This document shows positions 1,990 to 2,769 of a DNA stretch of 6,105 nucleotides, in pieces. The position numbers and the translations under genes are program-made. Within the stretch, counting starts at the first letter, position 1. Every line of letters begins with the position of its first letter. Source of the DNA: a virus (taxonomy: Duplodnaviria > Heunggongvirae > Uroviricota > Caudoviricetes); IMG/VR virus record IMGVR_UViG_2529292872_000016; one strand, written 5' to 3'. The notes under the pieces were generated by a model. It saw nothing but the letters and a program-made list of their open reading frames with translations, did no database searches and was not told the origin of the DNA.

Positions 1990-2703
1990 TCAATAATCAA
2001 GCCCTTGCCTGGATACATATCTGTCTGGCGGGAAGCCATAATAGCGGTGAAATACAGAAATAAAGTAGGACCGGCTTGAATAACCACATTTTTCTGCTAC
2101 AGCCTGTCCATATCCATACCGGGAACATAACATATTTACAGCAACACGCATCCGCTCTTCCAGCAACAAGCGACTGAACATGCCCCCTTCATTTTTCAGT
2201 TTTGTCTTTAACAAACTCTCACTCATATGCAACTGTAGAGCAATCGCACCAAGCGTCCAGCTTGCTGATATATCTGTCTGAATTATCGCCCTGACTTTGG
2301 CACTTATGCTGGATAAACATCCACTTAAAAACAATGACATCCGTTCATCTGTTTCAAACAGAGACAGGCAGGCCATCATAAGAAACATATCCGTGACCTC
2401 TCCGGAAAATCCCTGGCTGGTAATTAAAGCCGCAGCCAACGCAGGATTGTTGGGTTCCAGTGACAGATAAAGCGGAACGTCAGTCAGATGAGTTCTTGTC
2501 AGCTTATGCTGAATTTCCAGATATTGACTTACTATGGAATGGTTTATATCGAAAATTTTAACTTTGCCATAATGCATAAGGAAAAGCGCCCTGATGCATT
2601 TGGTGGCCAGAACGACTGAGCCGGGCTTAAGTGACAACGTATCCTTTTCAAGAAAAATATTAATTGGGGAGCAAACCATGATAACTGAACAGACAACAAC
2701 CAT
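1990..2703 (-). CDS. AraC/XylS-family transcriptional regulator, small AppY/GadX/Rns-like type without a sugar-binding domain (237 aa)
   Basis: Track ORF 1990..2703. The C-terminal ~100 aa carry the twin helix-turn-helix AraC signature (WTLGAIALQLHMSESLLKTKLKNEGGMFSRLLLEERMRVAVNML...GYGQAVAEKCGYSSRSYFISVFHRYYGFPPDRY). The N-terminus MVVVCSVIMVCS... resembles the AppY-type N-terminus. The gene is AT-rich with multiple ATA/AGA/AGG codons. Confidence 0.9.
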   Translation of the reverse strand: MVVVCSVIMVCSPINIFLEKDTLSLKPGSVVLATKCIRALFLMHYGKVKIFDINHSIVSQYLEIQHKLTRTHLTDVPLYLSLEPNNPALAAALITSQGFSGEVTDMFLMMACLSLFETDERMSLFLSGCLSSISAKVRAIIQTDISASWTLGAIALQLHMSESLLKTKLKNEGGMFSRLLLEERMRVAVNMLCSRYGYGQAVAEKCGYSSRSYFISVFHRYYGFPPDRYVSRQGLDY

Positions 2704-2738
2704 TATAATTTTACTTTCATTAGCAATTGGTTAGTTCA

Positions 2739-2769
2739 ATTATAGCCCCAAAAGGTAAATTATCATCAA
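2739..2769 (-). promoter_or_regulatory. Candidate sigma70 promoter for the AraC-family gene
   Basis: Minus strand TTGATG (-35; plus 2764-2769), 19-bp spacer, TATAAT (-10; plus 2739-2744), about 36 nt upstream of the ATG at 2703. The -10 is perfect but the spacer is long, so this is tentative. Confidence 0.3.

Follow-up and report, generated by a model that had tools for sequence, protein, structure and literature searches.

A predicted PsrA/PsrB-family regulator with a hybrid allele in the late region of an Sp4-like lambdoid prophage

Which AraC-type regulator sits beside the tRNA cluster of this prophage, and what would it do for the bacterium that carries it? The window, the whole stretch of 6,105 nucleotides that was analyzed, was one entire draft contig, AETY01000028.1 (assembly GCA_000187305.3). 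A preliminary description of positions 1990-2769 had proposed a prophage-borne lysogenic-conversion regulator of the PsrA, PsrB, PatE or AppY kind; that range corresponded to a single gene, here called psr, together with the best promoter-like site of the region. In the reading that we favor, with a probability of about 0.85, psr encodes an activator of AraC/XylS type that belongs to the PsrA/PsrB family (from "prophage-encoded secretion regulator"). The gene would be cargo, situated between Q and the lysis genes of an Sp4-like lambdoid prophage of pathogenic E. coli; it would be transcribed from its own promoter in the lysogen, control gadE and hdeA, and represent a recombinant allele.

The psr gene and its hybrid structure

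The gene and the segment of foreign type that overlaps it were as follows.
1990 to 2703, minus strand: psr, encoding a 237-aa AraC/XylS-family regulator (open reading frame, Pfam, identity to ECs_1087 and ECs_2191)
1961 to 2446, no strand: Sp11-type (PsrB-type) recombination tract in an Sp4-type backbone, with 28 consecutive informative sites matching Sp11

The reading frame began with ATG and was intact, and no internal stop or indel appeared when it was aligned with its relatives, so the gene was not disrupted. Its product matched accession WP_000261897.1 exactly, a protein recorded on this one contig. HTH_AraC (E=3.3e-13, 49.8 bits against a cut-off of 26.6, in two stretches) and HTH_18 (E=2.8e-9, 37.6 bits against a cut-off of 33.6, residues 155-230) were both matched above the curated Pfam cut-offs, confirming the 237-aa protein with a C-terminal AraC/XylS twin-HTH domain (~100 aa) that had been described from the letters. 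A Vmethyltransf_C match (19.9 bits, below the cut-off of 25) was dismissed as chance. The best relative in the PDB was the DNA-binding domain of GadX (3mkl, 2e-18), followed by Rns, CsvR and ToxT; the matches to GadX, Rns and ToxT spanned residues 111-233. The remaining ~130 N-terminal residues were homologous to the N-termini of GadW, YdeO, AppY and a PatE candidate, Sakai Sp1 ECs_0287, which was taken as the counterpart of patE (z0321, OI-8) by position, not by accession. The 237-aa start was preferred to the 195-aa start annotated in Sakai because the longer protein opened with the motif M-x-x-V-C-S-V-I, shared with these same four proteins. An AlphaFold2 model built on a 12-homologue alignment was of low confidence (mean pLDDT 60, pTM 0.41, residues 98-160 below 50), with a beta-rich N-terminus and a helical C-terminus.

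Close identity to the PsrA and PsrB proteins of O157:H7 was found. The psr protein was 94.9% identical to ECs_1087 (psrA) and 95.8% identical to ECs_2191 (PsrB type) of strain Sakai, and the proposal of a PsrA/PsrB-kind regulator was borne out at the level of a 95-96% identical allele. ECs_1087 served as the PsrA reference, following the name used for it by the group that first described the Psr regulators (PMC13502914). The PsrB type was checked with a published PCR primer designed on z2104 (psrB) (PMC4763077). This primer matched the window (2424-2443), Sp11, the second O157 copy in YB14-1 and an O145:H28 copy; because it matched Sp11 and not Sp4, the ECs_2191 type was identified as PsrB. 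When both were extended to the 237-aa start, ECs_1087 and ECs_2191 were 90.7% identical and differed at 22 positions, in agreement with the published 90% for PsrA and PsrB (PMC10877973, PMC8565820).

At these 22 diagnostic sites the psr protein divided cleanly: all ten in aa 2-81 were of PsrA type, all 12 in aa 91-211 were of PsrB type, and none held a residue foreign to both parents. PsrA (ECs_1087 on Sp4; z1789 in EDL933) was identical to the window protein over residues 1-90, and all 12 differences lay in residues 91-211, at positions where the window was of PsrB type; five (R157Q, I167T, H174G, H196Y and W211R) fell within the DNA-binding half. PsrB (ECs_2191 on Sp11, next to pchB; z2104 in EDL933), by contrast, was identical over residues 82-237, including both HTH motifs, and differed at ten N-terminal residues (positions 2-81), where the window was of PsrA type. 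In the DNA, the Sp11-type tract (~0.5 kb) covered codons ~86-237 and the 28-nt spacer to tRNA-Ile, and was flanked by 78 Sp4-type sites on one side (1602-1880) and 24 on the other (2461-2869); a second, short Sp11-like patch was present at 2891-2999. The clean mosaic in both protein and DNA indicated that an Sp4-like prophage had received a patch of ~0.5 kb from a PsrB-type copy. The hybrid would have arisen by recombination between PsrA-type and PsrB-type copies, with the crossover between codons 81 and 91; in O157:H7 Sakai the two types reside on separate co-resident prophages.

Judged by its sequence, psr is thus an intact hybrid allele of characterized regulators, PsrA in its N-terminal and PsrB in its C-terminal part. 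The kind was already known and the hybrid was not exceptional: other database alleles typed at the same 22 sites gave many different mosaics (2013C-3277; O145:H28 RM12581; P0054, P0056 and P0058), and the O145:H28 RM12581 allele was identical to the window protein at 233 of 237 residues. As a descriptive point, psrA and psrB are better seen as the ends of a mosaic allele series than as two discrete genes, which matters for typing and naming psr in non-O157 strains and for reading deletion phenotypes.

Neighborhood in the prophage and spread in E. coli

The genes of the window ran in the order DUF968, RusA, Q, CPBP protease, a small wHTH ORF, psr, ileZ/argN/argO, an sRNA and a nanS-p esterase. 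The principal neighbors of psr were the following.
4294 to 4674, minus strand: Q antiterminator gene (PF06530, Pfam E=8.7e-52)
3324 to 4148, minus strand: gene for a CPBP/Rce1-like intramembrane protease, cargo between Q and the tR'-like terminator (PF02517, E=1.4e-19; phrog_13291)
2840 to 3037, minus strand: small wHTH ORF ("TrmB family", phrog_331, E=3.9e-37) of 65 aa (alignment, translations and PHROG; annotated in relatives)
1712 to 1961, minus strand: tRNA genes ileZ (CAT, 1886-1961), argN (Arg-TCG, 1802-1878) and argO (Arg-TCT, 1712-1788) (ARAGORN, Rfam and the Sakai annotation ileZ1/argN1/argO1)

Given where the Q gene lies, psr stands at the beginning of the late region. In a megablast search of 5,426 complete E. 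coli genomes, the whole arrangement was found at 98.2% identity in many Shiga-toxin-type strains, in which the annotated order was DUF968, RusA, Q, CPBP, a frameshifted "TrmB family" ORF, an HTH protein, tRNA-Ile, two tRNA-Arg and an SASA esterase. Prophage Sp4 of O157:H7 Sakai had the same order from ECs_1082 to ECs_1088, the annotation giving ECs_1087 as a regulator of the AraC family, and the window was 97.8% identical to it over 6.1 kb. The agreement with the PsrA locus extended through the esterase and included the promoter and terminator region upstream of the gene. The second Sakai copy, ECs_2191 near pchB on Sp11, lay in a backbone unlike that of the window: its antiterminator was of DUF1133 type, the CPBP gene was missing, a TerB gene was present and the tRNAs numbered only two. 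Compared with Sp4 and Sp11, psr occupied the location of both PsrA and PsrB, the antiterminator-to-lysis slot of a lambdoid prophage directly upstream of the ileZ/arg tRNAs. The prophage origin given in the preliminary description was therefore confirmed by the RusA, Q and DUF968 neighbors and by synteny with Sp4, and so was the adjoining tRNA cluster, with three tRNA genes of which the first began 28 nt downstream of the psr stop.

At a threshold of roughly 86% DNA identity or more, psr was present in 726 of the 5,426 complete genomes (~13%), with a median of two copies and a total of 1,324 genomic copies. High-identity records labeled as plasmids were also retrieved; they measured 171 kb to 1.4 Mb and were set aside as suspected mislabeled chromosome fragments.

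Several neighbors showed features of their own. The CPBP protease gene (274 aa, GC 38%) was present in Sp4-type and absent from Sp11-type prophages, and may be immunity or exclusion-type cargo. The small wHTH ORF lay directly upstream of psr and always traveled with it. It was intact in Sp11, O145 and the Stx2k phage, and was frameshifted in the window by a 1-bp deletion near 2972 and, at another site, in Sp4 and 2013C-3277. In Sakai, 2013C-3277 and O145 the DUF968 gene measured 1,050 bp and was intact; in the window (5039-6088, minus strand) it had lost one base at 5664 and one at 5688, which left two ORFs that overlap (5649-6086 and 5039-5656). The frameshifts in both genes may be true decay or sequencing errors in an old draft contig. 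Per 250 bp, mismatches against Sp4 and 2013C-3277 rose sharply from 1 (5000-5249) to 11-39 (5250-6105), indicating a further recombination boundary within the DUF968 gene.

Between the argO terminator and the esterase gene, an Rfam match to the sRNA family STnc100 was found at 1445-1635 on the minus strand (138 bits, gathering score 47, E=2.4e-31). The EHEC sRNA EvrS, a 154-nt repressor of LEE acting via z2269, is located between z1789 (psrA) and the esterase gene z1793 (PMC11774850), which is the same slot; the likeness is one of position.

Reviews place psrA (z1789) on OI-50/CP-933N. In the potC-integrated prophage (espK, espN, espX7/nleL) of re-sequenced EDL933 (NZ_CP008957.1, 1625001-1675000) and in Sakai Sp6, no AraC gene was found between Q and the esterase gene. 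In EDL933 and Sakai, psr was found in the Sp4-type prophage rather than in the potC-integrated one (CP-933N/OI-50). The published placement may reflect the original assembly.

Signals for expression

The following signals were predicted around psr.
2739 to 2766, minus strand: promoter-like site ATGATA-16-TATAAT, ~30 nt upstream of the ATG (10 of 12 consensus matches, the best in 1600-4400)
2829 to 2854, minus strand: intrinsic-terminator-like 7-bp GC-rich hairpin (2854-2837) with U6 (-10.5 kcal/mol, z=-3.4)
3161 to 3182, minus strand: tR'-like terminator hairpin (3182-3167) with U6 (-9.1 kcal/mol, z -1.2, weak)
1672 to 1697, minus strand: strong terminator after the tRNA cluster (hairpin 1697-1680) with U8 (-13.8 kcal/mol, z -3.5)

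Promoter-like sites were about twice as common in this AT-rich stretch as in shuffled sequence (13 found, 6.2 expected), and a single match is for that reason weak evidence. The -10 hexamer was invariant in Sp4, Sp11, O145 and the Stx2k phage, and the 170 nt upstream of the psr ATG were 96% conserved on average, even in phage phiSTEC1575 (dS of the psr coding sequence ~0.2). The hairpin at 2854-2837 overlapped the stop codon of the 65-aa ORF immediately upstream of the psr promoter; in the Stx2k phage its stem was kept and its loop was changed. Homology between the window and Sp11, a prophage with a different antiterminator, started at 3171, that is, at the tR'-like hairpin, where Sp11 had its own hairpin variant; this fits a predicted boundary of the Q/pR'/tR' module at the hairpin. 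The late promoter pR' was not located by consensus, and weak candidates were seen in the gap between Q and CPBP (4233-4161) and between CPBP and the 3182-3167 terminator. Taken as sequence signals, these features support a promoter of its own for psr, probably shielded from unmodified transcription arriving from upstream.

Earlier, psr had been credited with its own putative promoter and with an upstream terminator insulating it from late transcription. Both elements stood as consensus matches that were conserved even in the divergent Stx2k phage copy, but the insulation would apply to the lysogen only. In lambdoid phages, Q-modified RNA polymerase reads through intrinsic terminators, and the stx genes in the same slot are transcribed with the late operon on induction. 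Because the modified polymerase ignores terminators, psr would join the late transcript after induction, as stx does.

At the 3' end of psr, a hairpin scan found no terminator between the gene and tRNA-Ile, and a promoter-like TTGATT-17-TATTAT (2000-1972) overlapped the end of the coding sequence. Rare codons read by the adjacent phage tRNAs were frequent in psr (ATA for 5 of 15 Ile; AGA and AGG for 5 of 12 Arg; CGG 4). The tRNAs may be co-expressed with psr.

Proposed role and alternative readings

In O157:H7, PsrA and PsrB bind the promoters of gadE and hdeA at AT-rich sites, and they elevate GadE and YhiF (PMC10877973, PMC8565820); acid resistance is increased, and LEE type III secretion is indirectly repressed (PMC10877973, PMC8565820; PMC13502914). 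Deletion of psrA had a secretion and colonization phenotype, whereas deletion of psrB had little effect on secretion (PMC10877973, PMC8565820). By the same scheme, psr in the lysogen would most likely be transcribed from its sigma-70-type promoter (2766-2739), and the terminators at 3182-3167 and 2854-2837 would stop unmodified polymerase coming from upstream. To judge from the sequence identity, the gadE and hdeA promoters would be bound at AT-rich sites by the twin-HTH domain, and GadE and YhiF would rise; greater acid resistance and an indirect repression of LEE type III secretion would follow. Since residues 82-237 were identical to the PsrB type, DNA recognition should equal that of PsrB; given the small effect of the psrB deletion, the phenotype conferred by a DNA-binding half of this type is not necessarily strong. 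Once the prophage is induced, polymerase modified by Q would, by analogy with lambdoid phages, pass the terminators and transcribe psr along with the tRNAs and late genes. Being the psr locus of an Sp4-like prophage, the window would connect its strain with a circuit already described, in which the GAD acid-resistance regulators are taken over by a regulator of phage origin and type III secretion is adjusted.

PsrA and PsrB were far closer to the window protein (95-96%) than the other AraC-type regulators with which it was compared (29-41%), listed here by identity to the window protein.
PatE candidate ECs_0287: 37% (E=7e-52 in a small set)
GadW: 34%
YdeO: 30-33%
AppY: 29-30%
GadX: 41%, C-terminal half only

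The PatE candidate, collinear over its full length, was the closest non-Psr relative tested. PatE resembles psr in being a prophage-borne AraC-type activator of gadE and hdeA; unlike psr, the candidate lay at the end of a thrW-integrated defective prophage rather than after Q. GadW, GadX, YdeO and AppY belong to the same AraC subgroup as the psr protein and act at the same regulatory node, gadE. Scores against the NCBIfam equivalog models fell far short of the cut-offs for YdeO (102.6 against 348) and GadX (87.4 against 500). An AppY-like N-terminus had been proposed for psr, and this held at the level of the subgroup only: when the N-terminal 135 residues were compared alone, the PatE candidate (66.6 bits) and GadW (42) scored above AppY (34, over 84 aa), with YdeO at 27. 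That the psr protein is an orthologue or functional equivalent of AppY of DLP12 is accordingly given next to no weight. AppY aligned collinearly from end to end (112 bits; residues 1-232 against 1-236), the VCSV motif was common to both, and AppY too activates gadE (PMC10057817). However, orthology was contradicted by the low overall identity, exceeded by both the PatE candidate and GadW, and by the different prophage position, since AppY is found at the tail-fiber end of DLP12 beside ompT and not after Q.

Two further readings accept a Psr-type protein and differ in what it does. In one, the prophage is decaying and psr is cargo that H-NS keeps silent; the gene is intact by chance or because it was acquired recently, and it regulates nothing in the host. 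Its low GC (43%), the frameshifts in the neighboring DUF968 gene and small wHTH ORF and the slight phenotype of the published psrB deletion would all agree with this, but we consider it improbable. Among six psr alleles dN/dS was 0.2-0.6 and was lower in the DNA-binding than in the N-terminal half (e.g., 0.13 against 0.57 for ECs_1087 and the Stx2k phage copy), indicating that protein function has been maintained. In every one of 727 matching records (coverage of the gene at least 80%), the full 714 bp were likewise intact, and the absence of foreign substitutions at the 22 parental-type sites points the same way. The neighboring frameshifts are single-base indels that may be sequencing errors, and the psrA deletion had a published phenotype. 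In the other reading, to which we give still less credence, the protein is mainly a regulator of the phage itself, acting on genes such as those for the neighboring tRNAs, the sRNA, nanS-p or lysis, and host acid resistance is affected secondarily. AraC-type genes with 36-39% identity occupy the same Q-to-holin slot in temperate coliphages from non-pathogenic settings, an AraC-type gene lies directly upstream of the tRNAs and stx2 in the Stx2k phage, and nothing terminator-like separates psr from its tRNAs. Against this, the published targets of PsrA and PsrB are host promoters, gadE and hdeA (PMC10877973). No report of phage targets for either protein was found. It is typically the host that benefits from morons in the Q-to-lysis slot, stx and nanS-p among them.

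The reading of psr as a PsrA/PsrB-family activator of host acid resistance can be extended to the mosaic itself. Prophage recombination may shuffle the fronts and backs of PsrA and PsrB so that the two-protein picture from O157:H7 fails across E. coli, and the hybrid (residues 1 to ~85 from PsrA, the remainder with the DNA-binding domain from PsrB) may differ from its parents in activity, partner choice or promoter preference. We regard this as unlikely, with rather more in its favor than the alternatives above. If the hybrid did behave differently, gene conversion between prophages would be a way to tune virulence regulation.

In the Stx2k phage phiSTEC1575 (OQ243220.1, 4601-7282), a TrmB-like ORF, a psr-like gene (89.7% identical) and three tRNAs were found directly upstream of stx2A and stx2B, showing that a psr-type regulator can share a phage with the toxin.
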